NCBI GenBank assembly: GCA_015523545.1
Contig: WAKB01000001.1
Location: 66,159 to 130,158, forward strand
Origin: Candidatus Geothermarchaeota archaeon
Lineage (GTDB): Archaea; Thermoproteota; Nitrososphaeria; Geothermarchaeales; JDFR-13
Reading direction: 5' to 3'
DNA length: 64,000 bases
A model generated the notes under the pieces. It saw only the letters and a list, made by a program, of their open reading frames with translations, was not told the DNA's origin and searched no databases. The stretch's first letter is position 1. Every line of letters starts with the position of its first letter. Shown here piece after piece: positions 17,070 through 28,025 of this stretch. Made by a program: the position numbers and the translations under genes.

Positions 17070-19822
17070 TGGGACAAGCCATTATAAACACCCCAAGCCT
17101 GAATAATTATTTTAACACGCACCGAGGGGTGGTTACTATTGAATACAACATCAGGATCGGCCTCGAGATACACATCCCACTCTCAACAGTAGATACCAAG
17201 CTATTCTGCCAATGTCCAAACCCGTTTAAACATCCTCCTGAGATGCCCAACCAATATGTATGCCCCACATGCCTGGGCCTACCTGGAGCCCTCCCCAGCC
17301 CAAATAGAGAGGCTATTAGGAAGGCGATAATCCTAGCGAAGGCCCTGAAGATGGAGATACCCAGTAAGATACAGTTCTACAGGAAGCATTATCTATATCC
17401 AGACCTACCCAAGGGATACCAGATAACCCAGTACATGGCTGGTGGGGATCTCCCAATAGGTATTAGGGGAGGGATGCTCTTCAGGGATAGGTATATGGGG
17501 ATAAGGAGGATACAGCTGGAGGAGGATCCCGCCAGGCTGGAGCATCCAGGTGGGCTGGGCGAGTCTAGTAGGACGCTCATCGACTACAACAGGTCTGGAG
17601 CCCCACTTATAGAGCTGGTTACCGAGCCAGAGATATACAGCCCTAGGGAGGCGAGGATATTCATAGAGGAGCTGACCAGACTCCTTGTCACGATAGGAGT
17701 TATATCCGAGGATACCCAGCCAAAGGTAGACGCAAACATATCTATCGAGGGTGGGCCGAGGGTAGAGATCAAGAACATATCCTCCCCCAGGGATGTTGAG
17801 AAGGCCCTTAGCTACGAGGCCATGAGGATGGCTAGATACATGGAGGAGGGTATAGAGATAAGGCGGGAGACGCGGCACTGGGACGATAGGAGGAGGGTGA
17901 CAATACCCCTTAGGGAGAAGGAGTATGAGGAGGAGTATAGATATATACCCGACCCCAACCTACCACCGATAGACATATCCGACATGATAGCCGAGGTCGA
18001 GGAGCCGGAGACCCCCCTGAAAATCCTGGAGAGGATCATCAGGGATGGGGTCGATGTGTACCCGGCCAAGATCATAGCATCGGACAGGAGACTCCTAAGA
18101 ATCTACCGGGAGGCCTCGGAGGGACTTGGGAGAAGGGCTAGGACGGAGCTGGCCAAGACACTTGTAAACGAGGCTAAACACATGCTAAACACCGGGAAGA
18201 CCGTGGAGGAGCTAATAGAAACCATGAAGCCCCTATACCAGCTGGTGGATAAGGGTATCATCACACCGGCCGAGGCTAGGGAGAAGCTCCTAGGAAGAAG
18301 GGGGTTGAAACTGGCCGATCAGGAGGAGATACTAAAGACGGTTGATAAGGTTCTTAGAGAGGTTGATACTAGTAGGAGGAGGAGTATAGACTACGTGGTC
18401 GGTACCGTTCTTAGAAGGCTTAGGGAGAGGGGTCTCGATGCGGACCCGAGGAGTATAGCCGAGTATGCCCGTGGAAAGATCGAGACAGCCAGGAAGATAG
18501 AGGTGAGGAGGGCTAGGGATGGAGAGGATAGGATGTATAAGGGTGTCGCGGAGGCCCCTAGACCAGTGGATCCTAGCGAGTTACCCAGCCTAGTCGGATC
18601 TGAAGTGGTTATAGGTGGCTGGCTAGAGACGAGGGCATATGTTGGGGACAAGCTCTTCCTACGGCTCAGGCATTGGAGAGGCACTGTACAGGTAGTGGCT
18701 CATGGAGATAGCCCGGCCTACAGAGAATTGTCGAGGCTCCCCAGAGAGGCATATATAGTCGTGAGGGGCAGGGTAGTCAGGGACTCAAGGGCCCCCGGCG
18801 GGCTAGAGATCCACGCATCAGAGGTAATCCCCGTAGGTACATCCACCGACCCACCATTGACACTGATGGACCTGGCTAGGTCAAGCCTCCCAACCAGGGT
18901 CAGGCATAGATACCTCGACATAAGGCGGCGTAGGGTGAGGGCTGTCCTATACATAAGGGCAAGGCTACTAGAGATCGTGAGGAGCCTCCTAACCAGGAAG
19001 GGCTTCGTAGAGATACAGACACCCACGATAATAGCCTCGGCCACAGAAGGAGGGGCGGAGCTATTCCCACTGATATACTATGGTAGGGAGGCCTTCCTAG
19101 CCCAGAGCCCCCAGCTATATAAACAGATGGCTATAAACGCCTTCGAGAAGGTCTTCGAGATCGATAGCTACTACCGGGCCCAGAAATTCGACACCCCACG
19201 CCACCTAGCAGAGTTCTGGTCCCTAGACGTCGAGGCCGCCCACCACGGGCTGGGAGACCTGATCAGCCTAGCTAGGGAGATACTTCTCGAGATACATAGG
19301 ACGCTCCCCTCAAAGGCGGGTGACGAGCTCATGCTCCTAGGGGTCGAGCTTGAGCCAGAGCCTAGCTTCGCGGAGATGAGTTATGACGAGGCTGTGGAGA
19401 TATCGGGGACGAGGTATGGCGAGGACATCTCTGCAGAGGCGTTAAGAGAGGTGTATAAGGAGGCGAACGCTAGATACCTGTTCATAACCCACTGGCCAGA
19501 GGAGACCAGGGCCTTCTACTACCGATCGATAGACGGGATAACCAGGAGCTTCGACCTAGTAGGACCCTTCACAGGGACGCCTATAGAACTTGCCAGTGGT
19601 GGGGAGAGGATAAACAGCTATGACGAGCTCGTCAGGAGCATTAGGCGTAGGGGGCTTAGGGAGGAATCGTATGGATGGTACCTAGAGATGTTTAGGTATG
19701 GAATGCCCCCACACGGAGGCTTCGGGTTGGGGATAGACAGGCTACTAGCATCCATCCTAGGCCTCGACTCCGTCTTGGAGGCAACCCTAATACCCAGGAC
19801 ACCCAAGTACTACGTCCCATAG
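17069..19822 (+). CDS. gatB-aspS: fusion protein: Asp/Glu-tRNA amidotransferase subunit B (GatB) joined to an archaeal-type aspartyl-tRNA synthetase (class IIb)
   Basis: Residues ~25-488 carry GatB hallmarks: IGLEIHIPL, TKLFCQC, CPTCLGLPGALP, YLYPDLPKGYQITQ, RIQLEEDPARL, NRSGAPLIELVTEP, EIKNISS, and a helical YqeY-like tail. Residues 489-917 form a full AspRS: the OB fold GSEVVIGGWLETRAYVGDKLFLRLRHWRGTVQVV, then FVEIQTPTIIASATEGGAELF, AQSPQLYKQ, YRAQKFDTPRHLAEFWSLDVE and GMPPHGGFGLGIDRL. The frame is uninterrupted. A likelier start is the GTG at 17129. Confidence 0.85.
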   Translation: MGQAIINTPSLNNYFNTHRGVVTIEYNIRIGLEIHIPLSTVDTKLFCQCPNPFKHPPEMPNQYVCPTCLGLPGALPSPNREAIRKAIILAKALKMEIPSKIQFYRKHYLYPDLPKGYQITQYMAGGDLPIGIRGGMLFRDRYMGIRRIQLEEDPARLEHPGGLGESSRTLIDYNRSGAPLIELVTEPEIYSPREARIFIEELTRLLVTIGVISEDTQPKVDANISIEGGPRVEIKNISSPRDVEKALSYEAMRMARYMEEGIEIRRETRHWDDRRRVTIPLREKEYEEEYRYIPDPNLPPIDISDMIAEVEEPETPLKILERIIRDGVDVYPAKIIASDRRLLRIYREASEGLGRRARTELAKTLVNEAKHMLNTGKTVEELIETMKPLYQLVDKGIITPAEAREKLLGRRGLKLADQEEILKTVDKVLREVDTSRRRSIDYVVGTVLRRLRERGLDADPRSIAEYARGKIETARKIEVRRARDGEDRMYKGVAEAPRPVDPSELPSLVGSEVVIGGWLETRAYVGDKLFLRLRHWRGTVQVVAHGDSPAYRELSRLPREAYIVVRGRVVRDSRAPGGLEIHASEVIPVGTSTDPPLTLMDLARSSLPTRVRHRYLDIRRRRVRAVLYIRARLLEIVRSLLTRKGFVEIQTPTIIASATEGGAELFPLIYYGREAFLAQSPQLYKQMAINAFEKVFEIDSYYRAQKFDTPRHLAEFWSLDVEAAHHGLGDLISLAREILLEIHRTLPSKAGDELMLLGVELEPEPSFAEMSYDEAVEISGTRYGEDISAEALREVYKEANARYLFITHWPEETRAFYYRSIDGITRSFDLVGPFTGTPIELASGGERINSYDELVRSIRRRGLREESYGWYLEMFRYGMPPHGGFGLGIDRLLASILGLDSVLEATLIPRTPKYYVP
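17102..17114 (+). promoter_or_regulatory. TATA-like box upstream of the gatB-aspS ORF
   Basis: aataattatttta lies about 20-27 nt upstream of the in-frame GTG at 17129, which immediately precedes the conserved GatB N-terminus (IGLEIH). This suggests 17129 is the real start rather than the ATG at 17069. Confidence 0.4.
18533..19822 (+). other. aspS: AspRS module of the fusion ORF, beginning at the in-frame Met489 (possible ancestral or alternative start)
   Basis: The ATG at 18533 is in frame: (18533-17069)/3 = 488. The 429 aa from here (MYKGVAEAP...) match the length and N-terminal style of stand-alone archaeal AspRS. Confidence 0.7.
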
Positions 19823-25071: not shown

Positions 25072-25158
25072 ACGCATCTACGGACACAGTAATTTATGTG
25101 GAACACTTTCACACTACACATCACCTAGATGATAAACAGCTAGGCTCCCCATACACTA

Positions 25159-25803
25159 TTGATGAGGAGCACCGGTGTATGGTTCCTAGACAAGATATTC
25201 GGCGGTATAAGGCCTGGGAAGACGTATGAGGTGGACGGCTATCCATGGAACCTCTTAAAAGAGGTTATGCACCGGGTGGTGGCCCACCTATCCATGGAGG
25301 GCCGTGTAGTCATCATATATGGGCAGTACTTCGACGGGCTAGACCCATACCTCCTGATAAGGATTGGGCGTGAGGAGGGGCTGGACACGGGCCTCCTGAA
25401 GAGGAATATAAGGCTTGCCCGCTGCTTCAAGGGGGAGGACATGGCCACAAATATTAGGCGGGGTGTCAAGACGGCTGGATACCTAGTCGTGGTAGACCCC
25501 TACCTACACACATACATGACTGAGAGGTCGGATCTCTACCCCATGATAGCCTCCGAGCTATACAGGGCCAAGATGAGGGGTAGGGGGATACTCATCTTCA
25601 ACAGGATAAGGTGGGATGGGAAGCCCCTAGGCGGGAGCCTCCATAGACACTCCCTCGACTATGTAGCCAGGCTCGTTATGATGGATAGGCTTATACACGT
25701 GGAGCTGGTCAAGGCGCTGGATAGGCCACCGATAAGCTTCGCCGTCGACGCGTCGAACCCCTGGAGAAGGAGGGTGCAACACCTCCTCGACAGGTGGATA
25801 TGA
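25159..25803 (+). CDS. RadB/RadA-paralog-like RecA-fold protein with a degenerate Walker A motif
   Basis: From memory it aligns end to end with the RadB pattern: TGVWFLDKIFGGIRPGKTYEVDG..., LVVVDP (Walker B position) and KPLGGSLHRHSLDYVARL. The P-loop position reads GYPWNLLKE instead of GxxGxGKT. TTG start. Confidence 0.6.
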   Translation: MMRSTGVWFLDKIFGGIRPGKTYEVDGYPWNLLKEVMHRVVAHLSMEGRVVIIYGQYFDGLDPYLLIRIGREEGLDTGLLKRNIRLARCFKGEDMATNIRRGVKTAGYLVVVDPYLHTYMTERSDLYPMIASELYRAKMRGRGILIFNRIRWDGKPLGGSLHRHSLDYVARLVMMDRLIHVELVKALDRPPISFAVDASNPWRRRVQHLLDRWI

Positions 25804-25804
25804 G

Positions 25805-26071
25805 ATGGGGAGGTCTATACCCAGCCCAACCAGGCATATAGACCGTGAGATAAGGAGGATTAGGAGGCTGGCCAGGAGATACCCGATGTATAGGGAGGGG
25901 CTAGAGAGGCTGGCCAGGATACTGAGACGGCGTAGGAGCATAGTATACCTCCTAACCGACCCCGAGGACGTGGCAGACCTACCATACCTAGTCGCCGCAT
26001 CGGTGCTACAGGGTGGTGAGGATGGGGACGGGCTGGATACTCAGGGTATTGAGAGACCTCGAGAGGGATAG
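25805..26071 (+). CDS. small Arg-rich hypothetical protein
   Basis: 88-aa ORF whose ATG follows the upstream stop by 1 nt (tgagATG). The N-terminal half is very basic (REIRRIRRLARRY...RILRRRRS). Its 3-prime end overlaps the polB frame by 50-59 nt. Confidence 0.4.
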   Translation: MGRSIPSPTRHIDREIRRIRRLARRYPMYREGLERLARILRRRRSIVYLLTDPEDVADLPYLVAASVLQGGEDGDGLDTQGIERPREG

Positions 26072-28025
26072 ATACGTACTCGTCATCAGGGAGTTTATGG
26101 GTAGGAGGATCCTCAGGGACCTGGTGCACCACCCCTCGATATACGTCAGTGGGGATAGGGAGGATCTGAGGGAGCTGCTTAGGGGGCTAGAGGCCTCGGA
26201 CTACCTAGTCGACTATGCATATGAGGAGTGGCTCCTCCCACCCTGGTATAGGAGGAGGGGGAGGATACTGAGGATAGACCTGCCAGGCCCTAGGGAGTAT
26301 GACGAGGTTCTTAGACACCTGAGGCTGGATGGGAGGTATAGGCTTTGGAACACCTATCCAAGCGATACCCAGATGATGATGTATAGGATGGGTATAGCCC
26401 CCTCACTACTCCTAAGGACCATGGATCTCCACCCCATAGACAATCCATGGGAGATGAACTATCTAGAGCCCGGATTCAGAAGGGTGGTCATAAGGCTCCT
26501 AGACTGGTACGGAGAAGTGGTGAATCCATGGGCTAAGGAGCCGATGATCTACGAGGTGTCCTACAACGTGGATGGCTACTGGGACGAGGCTATATATAGA
26601 GGCCTGGACAGCCTCATAGACGACCTGAGGGAGTATGACCCCGACGTGGTGGAGTTCACCTCTACATCAGCATATGTATGGCTGAGGGAGAGGGATGGAT
26701 TCTTCAGGGACACGGCGAGGGCATATATAGACTATGAGAGGAACGTCCTGGAGCCCCATGAATACCACGGCTTCATAGAGCTGAGCAGGCTAAGCAGGAC
26801 AGATATACACGAGGTATCGAGGTACAGCATAGGGAAGATACTCACCACGATAGAGGCCTACGAGGCACTATCCATGGGGCGTGCCATACCCGAGGTGAGG
26901 ACTGAGTGGGAGGGCTACAAAGACATCAAGCTCCTAAGCAGGGTCGACAGGGGTGGATACATAGCCAGCCCCAGGCCCGGTCTATACTGGAACGTGGCCC
27001 AGTGCGACTTCACAAGCCTATATCCCTCCATAATCGTGAGGTACAACATTGGGAACGAGACCGTCAACAGGCCTGGCTGCAGCAGGGAGATAAGGGTTCC
27101 AGAGGCGGGGCACAGGATATGCCTAGACACTAGATCTGTGGTGGCAAGCACACTAGAGAAGCTCTTGAAGAGGAGGATAAGGCTTAAAGACATGGCTAGG
27201 GAGACCGGCGACCCCATCCTAAATAGTCGGCAGAACGCCCTGAAATGGATACTCGTAACATGCTTCGGATATCTGGGCTATAGGAACGCCCGGTTCGGGA
27301 AGATAGAGGCATATGAATCGGTGACCTCCTATGCGAGACACATAATGTATAGAGCCGCCGAGATAGCCAGGGAGATGGGGCTGGAGGCTATCCACATACT
27401 CGTAGACAGTATATGGGTCTCGGGGGGAGACGAGAAGACCTATAGAAAGTATTGTATAAGGGTTACACGGGAGACGGGGTTCAGGATGGAGCTCGAGGCA
27501 CTCTACAGGTGGCTATACATACCCCCAAACAGGTCCGGCATGGGGGAGGCGGCGATAAACAGGTATGTAGGCGGACTGGTGGATGGGGGCTACAAGGCCA
27601 AGGGGGTAGAGATGGTTAGGAGCGACGTCCCAAGGATAGTAGCCGAGTTCCAGCGCCAGGCACTCGCACTACTAGCCAGGGCGGAGAACCCCGAGGAGAT
27701 GGAGCGTATAGTAGGCAAGATACCCAGGCTGATAGAGATATTCAGGAAAGCAATCATGAAAGGCGAGGTGGAGCTGGAATACCTCGTAGTAACACGTAGA
27801 CTCTCCAAGAAGCCGGGTGAATACCTATCTAGACAGCCACATGTAGAGGCGGCCAAGAAGCTGGGTAGATGGGTTGGTAAGGTGAAGTATATACTTACAT
27901 CGAGGGGGGCTGTGCCGGTAGAGCTATGGAAGCCCTCTATGGGCTACGACGTGGACAAATATGTCGAGATGATGGTTAGGAGCCTAGCCAGCCTACCGGT
28001 ACCACTCGAGAGGCTTGGACTATAG
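26013..28025 (+). CDS. polB: family B DNA polymerase, PolB3-like (exonuclease motifs not recognisable, motif C degenerate)
   Basis: Motif A is QCDFTSLYPSII and the motif B region is NSRQNALKWILVTCFGYLGY. Motif C reads HILVDSIWV instead of YGDTDS. I could not find Exo I (DxE) or Exo II (NxxxFD); the expected Exo II site reads DPDVVEFTSTSAY. Start candidates are GTG 26013/26016 and ATG 26022. Confidence 0.8.
   Translation: MVRMGTGWILRVLRDLERDRYVLVIREFMGRRILRDLVHHPSIYVSGDREDLRELLRGLEASDYLVDYAYEEWLLPPWYRRRGRILRIDLPGPREYDEVLRHLRLDGRYRLWNTYPSDTQMMMYRMGIAPSLLLRTMDLHPIDNPWEMNYLEPGFRRVVIRLLDWYGEVVNPWAKEPMIYEVSYNVDGYWDEAIYRGLDSLIDDLREYDPDVVEFTSTSAYVWLRERDGFFRDTARAYIDYERNVLEPHEYHGFIELSRLSRTDIHEVSRYSIGKILTTIEAYEALSMGRAIPEVRTEWEGYKDIKLLSRVDRGGYIASPRPGLYWNVAQCDFTSLYPSIIVRYNIGNETVNRPGCSREIRVPEAGHRICLDTRSVVASTLEKLLKRRIRLKDMARETGDPILNSRQNALKWILVTCFGYLGYRNARFGKIEAYESVTSYARHIMYRAAEIAREMGLEAIHILVDSIWVSGGDEKTYRKYCIRVTRETGFRMELEALYRWLYIPPNRSGMGEAAINRYVGGLVDGGYKAKGVEMVRSDVPRIVAEFQRQALALLARAENPEEMERIVGKIPRLIEIFRKAIMKGEVELEYLVVTRRLSKKPGEYLSRQPHVEAAKKLGRWVGKVKYILTSRGAVPVELWKPSMGYDVDKYVEMMVRSLASLPVPLERLGL

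Follow-up and report, generated by a model that had tools for sequence, protein, structure and literature searches.

A probable type 1a PolB2 mutasome operon in a Geothermarchaeota-type archaeon and a candidate damage-response box upstream of it

A 64,000-nucleotide stretch of a Candidatus Geothermarchaeota genome (GenBank assembly GCA_015523545.1, contig WAKB01000001.1, positions 66,159 to 130,158; hereafter the window) contains three chained genes on the + strand that very probably form a type 1a PolB2 "mutasome" operon, iRadA-PPB2-PolB2, with products acting as a PolB2:iRadA:(PPB2)3 translesion complex. The first gene (25159..25803, +) encodes a 214-amino-acid (aa) protein recognised as iRadA, a catalytically inactive RadA/Rad51-core paralog, by an AlphaFold model, Foldseek and a family profile. 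The second (25805..26071, +) encodes an Arg-rich, helical protein of 88 aa, recognised as PPB2, the arCOG07300-type PolB2 partner, by its position, predicted helices and MGRS arm. The third (26022..28025, +; alternative GTG start at 26013) encodes a 667-aa B-family polymerase recognised as PolB2 (Dpo2-type) by the Pfam DNA_pol_B model, alignment to the Pfu and KOD enzymes and grouping with published PolB2 sequences. The iRadA-PPB2-PolB2 linkage is already known, and the window holds a further, typical copy of it in an uncultured archaeon of a Geothermarchaeota-type lineage (GTDB class Nitrososphaeria), known only from metagenome bins. Upstream of the operon lies a conserved box (25102..25112, +) that resembles the damage-response element of Sulfolobus and looks unreported before PolB2 operons in such a lineage.

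Predicted operons of this kind were described by Makarova, Krupovic and Koonin in 2014; in them PolB2 is accompanied by RadA-family ATPases that have become inactive and by arCOG07300, a helical protein of about 90 aa (PMC4104785). More recently, Timinskas, Timinskas and Venclovas (2025) gave the partners the names iRadA and PPB2, classified the gene orders, of which group 1a (iRadA-PPB2-PolB2) is the commonest, and modelled a PolB2-iRadA-(PPB2)3 heteropentamer, with ranking scores of about 0.8-0.9 (PMC11791011). In these models a PolB2 loop docks on iRadA like the Rad51 FxxA oligomerisation motif, a DK/DR motif contacts the PPB2 arm, and this conserved N-terminal arm of PPB2 inserts between PolB2 and iRadA, beside the DNA (PMC11791011). 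PIP boxes were also described, with "shuttling" clamp-binding motifs more frequent in iRadA, and PolB2 operons were inferred to have moved often between archaea by horizontal transfer (PMC11791011). As summarised in the same paper, S. islandicus Dpo2, which has IID at motif C, is an active, damage-induced translesion extender that is required for damage-induced mutagenesis (PMC11791011). Such activity is known only for the Dpo2 enzymes of Sulfolobales. A dead RadA paralog, a small helical protein and a PolB that lacks an exonuclease have been known as linked since 2013-2014, and the trio was modelled in detail in 2025; the window adds one ordinary example, and all of its features examined agree with these descriptions.

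Assignment of the polymerase to PolB2

The window polymerase matches the Pfam DNA_pol_B model (PF00136) with 103 bits against a cut-off of 23, and its residues 255-625 align to residues 331-695 of the Pfu and KOD PolB enzymes with an E-value of about 1e-37. On sequence grounds the enzyme is a PolB2 (Dpo2-type) and not a PolB3, because of its position in a tree, its BLAST matches, its identity to PolB2 between motifs B and C, the LVD variant of motif C and the D(K/R) loop. The PolB2 reference fragments were taken from the supplementary operon table of Timinskas et al. 2025 (PMC11791011). In a maximum-likelihood tree, the split between the PolB1s plus the PolB3-like sequence and a group of five published PolB2 fragments plus the window clade has a support of 100/99; one row of this tree, L007, was a wrong reading frame from a neighbouring gene and was disregarded. 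The N-terminal 345 aa of the window polymerase match a Bathyarchaeota PolB2 end to end (E 3e-23), and the match to the PolB3 of its own genome is limited to residues 252-343 (E 2.5e-9). Over the 61 residues from motif B to motif C, 31-37 are identical to published PolB2 sequences, as against 24 for the genome's own PolB3 and 18 for its own PolB1.

The motifs quoted in a first-pass annotation of the stretch, namely GYPWNLLKE in the first protein and DFTSLYPS, a motif B-like element and LVDS in the polymerase, are all present. Motif A, DFTSLYPS (27006..27029, +), keeps the catalytic Asp, and D329, F330, S332, P335 and S336 are invariant when compared with the genome's own PolB1 and PolB3. The motif B region, KWILVTCFGYLGY (27243..27281, +; PolB2 signature ALKWILVTCFGYLGYRNARFGK), was placed by the motif B-to-C identity to published PolB2 and retains the motif B Lys. 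In motif C, LVDS (27399..27410, +), the first Asp of DxD is replaced and the second (D462) is kept, both in the alignment with the PolB enzymes of the same genome and in that with Pfu PolB, where YIDTDGLY stands opposite HILVDSIW. Most PolB2 enzymes show this replacement, which sets the window polymerase apart from the basal PolB2 group that retains DxD. In the published PolB2 operon table, LVD has at least 30 occurrences and is given as a variant of the DxD site (PMC11791011). The primer-contact motif, of KKRY type, is INRY in the window polymerase. Comparison with the published fragments also located the loop EGYKDIKLLSRVDRGG (26910..26957, +), in which an aromatic-xx-aliphatic element, YKDI, is followed by the PolB2-specific D(K/R) motif (DR, 26946-26951). 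At the equivalent loop the published fragments read E(A/T)FKSAxELLVADRGG, with FKSA at the place of YKDI and ADRGG at that of VDRGG (residues 308-312 of the window polymerase).

It is unlikely that the trio is non-catalytic and serves as a structural or regulatory DNA-binding assembly at stalled forks or origins, together with Orc1/Cdc6 paralogs. Such roles, part of the older view of PolB2 as inactivated, were proposed by Makarova et al. 2014 (PMC4104785) and would suit a complex in which the first motif C Asp is lost, INRY replaces KKRY, the exonuclease and iRadA ATPase sites are gone, and an Orc1/Cdc6 paralog of the genome has the same promoter box. This alternative carries little weight, because a comparable replacement in motif C leaves a Sulfolobus enzyme active: the Dpo2 of S. 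islandicus has IID there and, as summarised in PMC11791011, works as a translesion extender. The window enzyme moreover retains Asp in motif A, Lys in motif B and the second Asp of motif C, and the Orc1 link is better explained by transcriptional control.

When the window polymerase was compared with the PolB1 of its own genome (LDIEV, NGDAFD and YAVTD), no DxE, NxxxFD or YxxxD exonuclease motif was found in it, in a region where the alignment is weak. The earlier observation that Exo I and Exo II motifs are missing is thereby borne out, with the same caveat on the alignment. The first-pass annotation had proposed a PolB3-like polymerase served by an accessory pair, a RadB-like protein and a basic DNA- or RNA-binding peptide. 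A divergent, exonuclease-less B-family enzyme with RecA-fold and small basic neighbours would suit that proposal, which is nevertheless very improbable given the other polymerases of the genome. The assembly (1.15 Mb, 17 contigs) encodes three B-family polymerases: PolB1 (930 aa; NF004417, 948 bits against a cut-off of 780), a PolB3-like enzyme (L001, 767 aa, with an intact YGDTDS and a PIP-like tail) and the window enzyme; the same set is found in three related genomes. The PolB3 slot is filled by the separate 767-aa enzyme with its intact DTDS, whereas the window enzyme groups with PolB2 and carries DRGG, the xVD motif C and the ALKWILVTCFGYLGY block, and the 214-aa protein is matched by no RadB or RadA model. 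The notion of accessory subunits agrees with the current published model, with PolB2 and not PolB3 as the partner. The hoped-for new handle on PolB3 function did not survive, as the window trio is uninformative about PolB3 and the corresponding idea for PolB2 has already been published (PMC4104785, PMC11791011).

As a separate observation, the PolB3-like enzyme (L001:448-2751, contig C15 of the same genome) has LALEF at the Exo I site and GGNRVFYPY at the Exo II (NxxxFD) site. Judged by these residues, it may be without proofreading, like the S. islandicus PolB3 described in PMC11791011.

The 214-aa protein is an iRadA

By sequence and predicted structure the 214-aa protein is an iRadA, because it combines a Rad51 core fold with the lack of an N-terminal domain, the lack of a P-loop and a C-terminal PIP-like box. 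Its sequence found no Pfam or NCBIfam family at E<=1, RadB and RadA models included, and no PDB sequence at E<=10; it took a family alignment and a structure prediction to recognise the fold. A word-indexed homology search returned four iRadA relatives; an exhaustive profile search was needed for the family, which has 33 members at E<=1e-10, proteins of about 215 aa. One of the members (P0004) scores above the Pfam Rad51 threshold, with 28.7 bits. The AlphaFold model built on the family alignment has a predicted local distance difference test score (pLDDT) of 93.9 and a predicted template modelling score (pTM) of 0.90. The top Foldseek matches of this model are DMC1, RAD51 and RadA (E 6e-15 to 1e-12, TMq 0.73-0.80), so that the fold check confirmed a RecA-type fold. 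The full-length RAD51, DMC1 and RadA targets have about 310 aa (TMt about 0.55); iRadA is without the RadA N-terminal helical (HhH) domain, its 214 aa beginning with the core at residue 1. The true RadA of the genome is a separate gene with a 344-aa frame. An earlier description of the protein as RadB-like and Walker-A-dead thus holds for the RecA/Rad51 fold and the dead ATPase site in the AlphaFold and Foldseek results, and fails for RadB, whose models do not match.

The degenerate Walker A position, DGYPWNLLKE (residues 26-35; 25234..25263, +), was placed by the family alignment and the model. GK[ST] is missing from the P-loop position in all 36 members of the alignment, and the modelled loop that joins beta-1 (residues 22-28) to the helix at 30-45 is too short for a P-loop. 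The string GGIRPGKT (residues 15-22) might be taken for a cryptic Walker A, a reading that was dismissed. It lies before beta-1, at the GGGhxxG turn of RadA, and is not conserved; its fit to GxxxxGK[ST] is due to chance, and an 82%-identical orthologue has GRT there.

At the C-terminus, the family motif and the alignment point to a PIP-like (candidate PCNA-binding) box, QHLLDRWI (25777..25800, +). In 26 of the 36 family members the pattern Qxx[LIMV]xx[WFY]x stands at the C-terminus or close to it, and Q207 and W213 are invariant in alignment A2. Euryarchaeal RadB, as in Pyrococcus, is likewise a short RadA paralog without an N-terminal domain, and its gene is linked to the PolD operon. The partner polymerase of RadB is of family D, while the window protein stands next to a B-family enzyme, is not matched by RadB or RadA models and has no Walker A.

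The 88-aa protein resembles PPB2

The 88-aa protein matches the PPB2/arCOG07300 type in sequence and predicted structure, because its position, size, helicity and MGR[ST] arm are those of the published PPB2/arCOG07300 proteins. It has 18 Arg in 88 residues and is matched by no Pfam or NCBIfam model, and the word-indexed search returned two relatives. Its predicted structure (pLDDT 72) contains helices at residues 8-25, 27-42, 44-49, 53-56 and 59-68, followed by a disordered tail at 74-88. With this moderate-confidence model Foldseek returned nothing significant (best E 2.2), and the published sigma-factor-like resemblance was not reproduced.

The clearest mark of the family is the N-terminal arm, MGRS in the window (25805..25816, +) and MGRT in the published consensus. 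Among 11 PPB2 sequences from different lineages M1, G2, R3 and P6 are invariant, and position 4 is S or T. In every locus with enough downstream sequence, iRadA is followed by an open reading frame (ORF) of about 80-88 aa; all of these begin with MGR[ST], and their overall identity goes down to 14-35% across loci. In one locus (L005:1083-1331) the public annotation lets the PPB2 homologue begin at an internal Met (73 aa); extended upstream to 82 aa, the frame starts with MGRS, a hallmark that is hidden in the L005 annotation.

Gene arrangement and linkage in related genomes

The ORF list gives three same-strand frames, at 25159-25803 (214 aa), 25805-26071 (88 aa) and 26013-28025 (670 aa, GTG start). 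That they are chained, as had been noticed in the first-pass annotation, was confirmed, with a stop at 25803, an ATG at 25805 and an 88-aa frame that overlaps polB. The first frame starts with TTG at 25159, with an alternative ATG at 25162. The iRadA/PPB2 junction reads TGG ATA TGA g ATG, in which the stop codon (25801-25803) and the ATG (25805) are separated by one base. The 88-aa frame overlaps the polB frame by 50-59 nucleotides (nt), the lower figure applying if polB starts at ATG 26022. This start is likelier than GTG 26013, because GGTGGTGAGG precedes it and orthologue alignments begin there.

The order iRadA-PPB2-PolB2 is kept in L007, L008 and L006, in which iRadA is 82%, 93% and 34% identical, respectively, and in other genera of the family (G010, G011 and G015; iRadA 29-39% identical). 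The trio, or the pair with PolB2 nearby, recurs in relatives in which iRadA is only 29-42% identical, and on this comparison the arrangement is not due to chance. Linkage in related genomes, a check that the first-pass annotation had proposed, was therefore found down to 29% iRadA identity. The position of PolB2 varies. In a second lineage (L011-L013) it lies 1.8 kb upstream on the opposite strand, in divergent orientation. In G005, the 'Candidatus Geothermarchaeota' metagenome-assembled genome (MAG) WAKC01, and in G004, both from the window's own genus, no PolB2 follows iRadA-PPB2 directly; in G005 it lies 8.3 kb downstream on the same strand. In this split operon of G005 (L016, G001/G005 contig C29; L009/L027) an unrelated 597-aa gene and others come after iRadA-PPB2. 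Separately, in L011:7387-9858 the gene after PPB2 encodes an 823-aa KaiC/RadA-like ATPase (GEPGTGKT), apparently interrupted by an intein-like insert.

The genes around the trio are of a housekeeping kind (glnA, a GGACT-family gene, a TrkA-type K+ channel and acetyl-CoA synthetase), and their order is kept in relatives. The trio therefore belongs to the chromosome and to no mobile element. The frequent horizontal exchange of PolB2 operons inferred in PMC11791011 and the patchy distribution of iRadA in the family, where it occurs in genera g1, g4, g5 and g7 and was not found in g2, g3 and g6, might suggest the polymerase of a mobile element or virus (casposon-type or protein-primed PolB) with element-specific small genes, yet this can be set aside as highly improbable, as no signature of an integrase, Cas1, a terminal protein or repeats accompanies the trio, the flanks are syntenic, the GC content of the trio is that of its surroundings, and the sequence is that of PolB2 and not of the casposon or pPolB type.

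Proposed assembly and its weighing

By analogy with the published models, the three products would assemble as PolB2:iRadA:(PPB2)3. The ATPase-dead iRadA would serve as an adaptor that docks on the PolB2 loop (EGYKDI...VDRGG), a mimic of the Rad51 oligomerisation motif. One of the PPB2 subunits would place its MGR[ST] arm between PolB2 and iRadA, beside the primer-template, and QHLLDRWI of iRadA would tether the complex to PCNA. PolB2 itself would act as a damage-induced translesion extender of distorted or mismatched primer ends, without proofreading, as does Dpo2 of Sulfolobus islandicus. To this published scheme we add that transcription would be damage-inducible via the box at 25102-25112, to which the Orc1/Cdc6 paralog, with the same box in its own promoter, would probably bind.

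Several points weigh against this reading. The best NCBIfam match of the window polymerase, NF004416, is below cut-off; as a PolB2 marker this model was set aside as uninformative, since it was above cut-off in none of 14 control genomes, Sulfolobus included. The tree sampled one PolB3-like sequence, and its PolB2 references are N-terminal fragments. The presumed iRadA-docking element of the polymerase is YKDI and not FxxA, and INRY together with the lost first Asp of motif C leaves room for an enzyme that may catalyse weakly or not at all. The membership of the 88-aa protein in PPB2 is drawn from position, size, helicity and the MGR[ST] arm. Upstream of iRadA in G010, G011 and G015 no clear box was found. 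Finally, what is proposed on the assembly, its stoichiometry, the binding of PCNA and the activity of the polymerase is taken from homologues.

Comparison with known systems

The published group 1a operon has the same three families as the window trio, in the same order and orientation. The polymerases are alike in the xVD motif C, the decayed exonuclease domain and the DR-GG loop; the iRadA proteins are alike in the missing N-terminal domain and P-loop and in the C-terminal PIP-like box, and the PPB2 proteins in being helical, of about 85 aa and with MGR[ST]. There are also differences. The published table lists other Nitrososphaerota (PMC11791011), whereas the window lineage is a Geothermarchaeota-type genus; the docking element is FxxA in published PolB2 and YKDI in the window; and in the window PPB2 overlaps polB2 by 50 nt. 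The DUF72, SRAP and orc1/cdc6 neighbours that are enriched in PMC11791011 are not adjacent to the trio in the window, where the Orc1 link runs via the shared box.

The Dpo2 locus of Sulfolobus/Saccharolobus (S. islandicus SiRe_0614/0615) contains the same three families, but in the group 3a order PPB2-PolB2-iRadA instead of 1a. The first Asp of motif C is substituted in both, as IID in Dpo2 and as LVD in the window. The Sulfolobus system has been characterised experimentally, whereas the window system is known from its sequence.

The published comparison with E. coli Pol V (UmuD'2C-RecA-ATP) rests on a damage-induced translesion polymerase that binds a RecA/Rad51-family subunit via an oligomerisation-like motif and has a small oligomeric subunit inserting its N-terminal arm near the active site (PMC11791011). 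The catalytic subunit of Pol V is of the Y family and that of the PolB2 mutasome of the B family. RecA in Pol V is the active cellular recombinase with ATP, whereas iRadA is an ATPase-dead paralog with a dedicated role. The small subunits, a UmuD' dimer and a PPB2 trimer, are unrelated.

The upstream box and a candidate damage regulon

The box AACACTTTCAC (25102..25112, +), of the form AAYACTTTCAC and containing ANTTTC, lies about 55 nt upstream of the operon. AA(C/T)ACTTTCAC is invariant in five aligned iRadA upstream regions with otherwise diverged flanks, two of them from genomes in which iRadA is only 42% identical. About 20 nt downstream of the box and about 25 nt before the start codon, a TATA-like element, GATAAACA (25131..25138, +), can be read from the sequence; orthologous upstream regions have GATATAC and CATATAG at its position. 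The position of this element suggests a leaderless or short-leader operon mRNA.

In S. islandicus, ANTTTC is the element bound by Orc1-2 in damage-response promoters, Orc1-2 is needed for dpo2 to be induced by DNA damage, and the motif, with the extended consensus AATAGTTTCRG, is placed at -23 to -55 (PMC6061795). ANTTTC is carried by the promoters of damage genes that are highly induced in S. islandicus (PMC6061795), and a box with the same core stands upstream of the trio. The core of the window box, ACTTTC, fits ANTTTC, and the extended box AAYACTTTCAC is similar to AATAGTTTCRG, from which it differs in detail.

The distribution of the box in the window's own genome is consistent with a regulatory element. 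The 8-mer ACTTTCAC has only eight occurrences, whereas words with the same base composition average 61. Five of the eight lie 20-150 nt upstream of a same-strand ORF (100-aa cut-off), against a background of 6.6%, and six lie 48-69 nt upstream of a start codon once a 99-aa ORF is counted. The genes so marked, with the box A(C/T)ACTTTCAC 48-72 nt upstream, are the iRadA operon, endonuclease V (EndoV; PF04493, 180 bits), a BFN-domain nuclease, an Orc1/Cdc6 paralog of 400 aa (C10:34865-36064; one of three Orc1-like genes in the genome), a 112-aa ORF and a 99-aa membrane ORF. Apart from 25102-25112, A(C/T)ACTTTCAC is found at C1:136305, C1:254405, C8:79241, C8:110911(-) and C10:34793.

Among relatives, the box upstream of the Orc1 paralog is kept in eight genomes of five genera (G000 and seven further genomes, with orthologues 53-69% identical). 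Across the family the pattern AWTACTTTCAC has 35 matches, compared with 6 for the control, and shows no excess outside the family. In relatives it also precedes an XPD-like DEAD_2 helicase and orthologues of the small ORF, and at a greater distance a ribonucleotide reductase. ANTTTC-type boxes stand before iRadA in distant lineages as well (L006, L010 and L011-L013). In the split operon of G005 each part has its own ANTTTC-type box, that of PolB2 being GAATATTTTCAC, about 55 nt upstream of the gene.

Because the box is also found upstream of the Orc1/Cdc6 paralog, EndoV and other repair genes, these sequences suggest an Orc1-2-type damage regulon outside Sulfolobales. The chances seem about even that the Orc1-2/ANTTTC network, so far demonstrated by experiment in Sulfolobales only, also operates in this Geothermarchaeota-type family of Nitrososphaeria, where a box of the form (G/T)A(A/T)TACTTTCAC just upstream of TATA would drive a compact regulon. 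Its members may include the mutasome operon, an autoregulated Orc1/Cdc6 paralog, EndoV, the BFN-domain nuclease, the XPD-like helicase and a protein of 100-113 aa. A literature search on ANTTTC, Orc1-2 and DDRE returned studies of Sulfolobales only, none of the papers listed tying the element to Thaumarchaeota, Nitrososphaeria, Aigarchaeota or Geothermarchaeota, and a Sulfolobus-type damage box before a PolB2 operon is apparently unreported there. The promoter-box regulon is a moderate, testable lead drawn from sequence comparison. If the box is indeed a damage element bound by the Orc1/Cdc6 paralog, the damage-response circuit of Sulfolobus would be older and more widespread than has been shown, sequence alone would suffice to read damage regulons in TACK archaea that have not been cultured, and two genes would become new repair candidates, those of the small membrane protein and of the conserved protein of 100-113 aa.

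Three further observations concern genes near such boxes. A conserved protein of 96-113 aa, without a Pfam match and with the motif ...YPIIYLEDSETTTFLY..., is always downstream of the box, in the window's own genome from C8:79241 onward (L080) and in its orthologues L076, L077, L082, L085 and L094. It stands just after the third, truncated-looking Orc1-like gene (363-aa frame) in G000 and G007, and a few kb from RadA in G000. In L081 (G005 contig C8) a box at 18312 stands before the gene of a 293-aa protein that has a CxxC...CxxC zinc ribbon at its N-terminus and finds no match in Pfam; this protein might be transcription-factor-like by analogy with the damage-induced TFB3 of Sulfolobus. At C10:39489 of the window's own genome, 4 kb from the Orc1 paralog, a variant box, AATATTTTCAC, is located 60 nt upstream of a 700-aa ORF, the N-terminus of which looks MCM-like.

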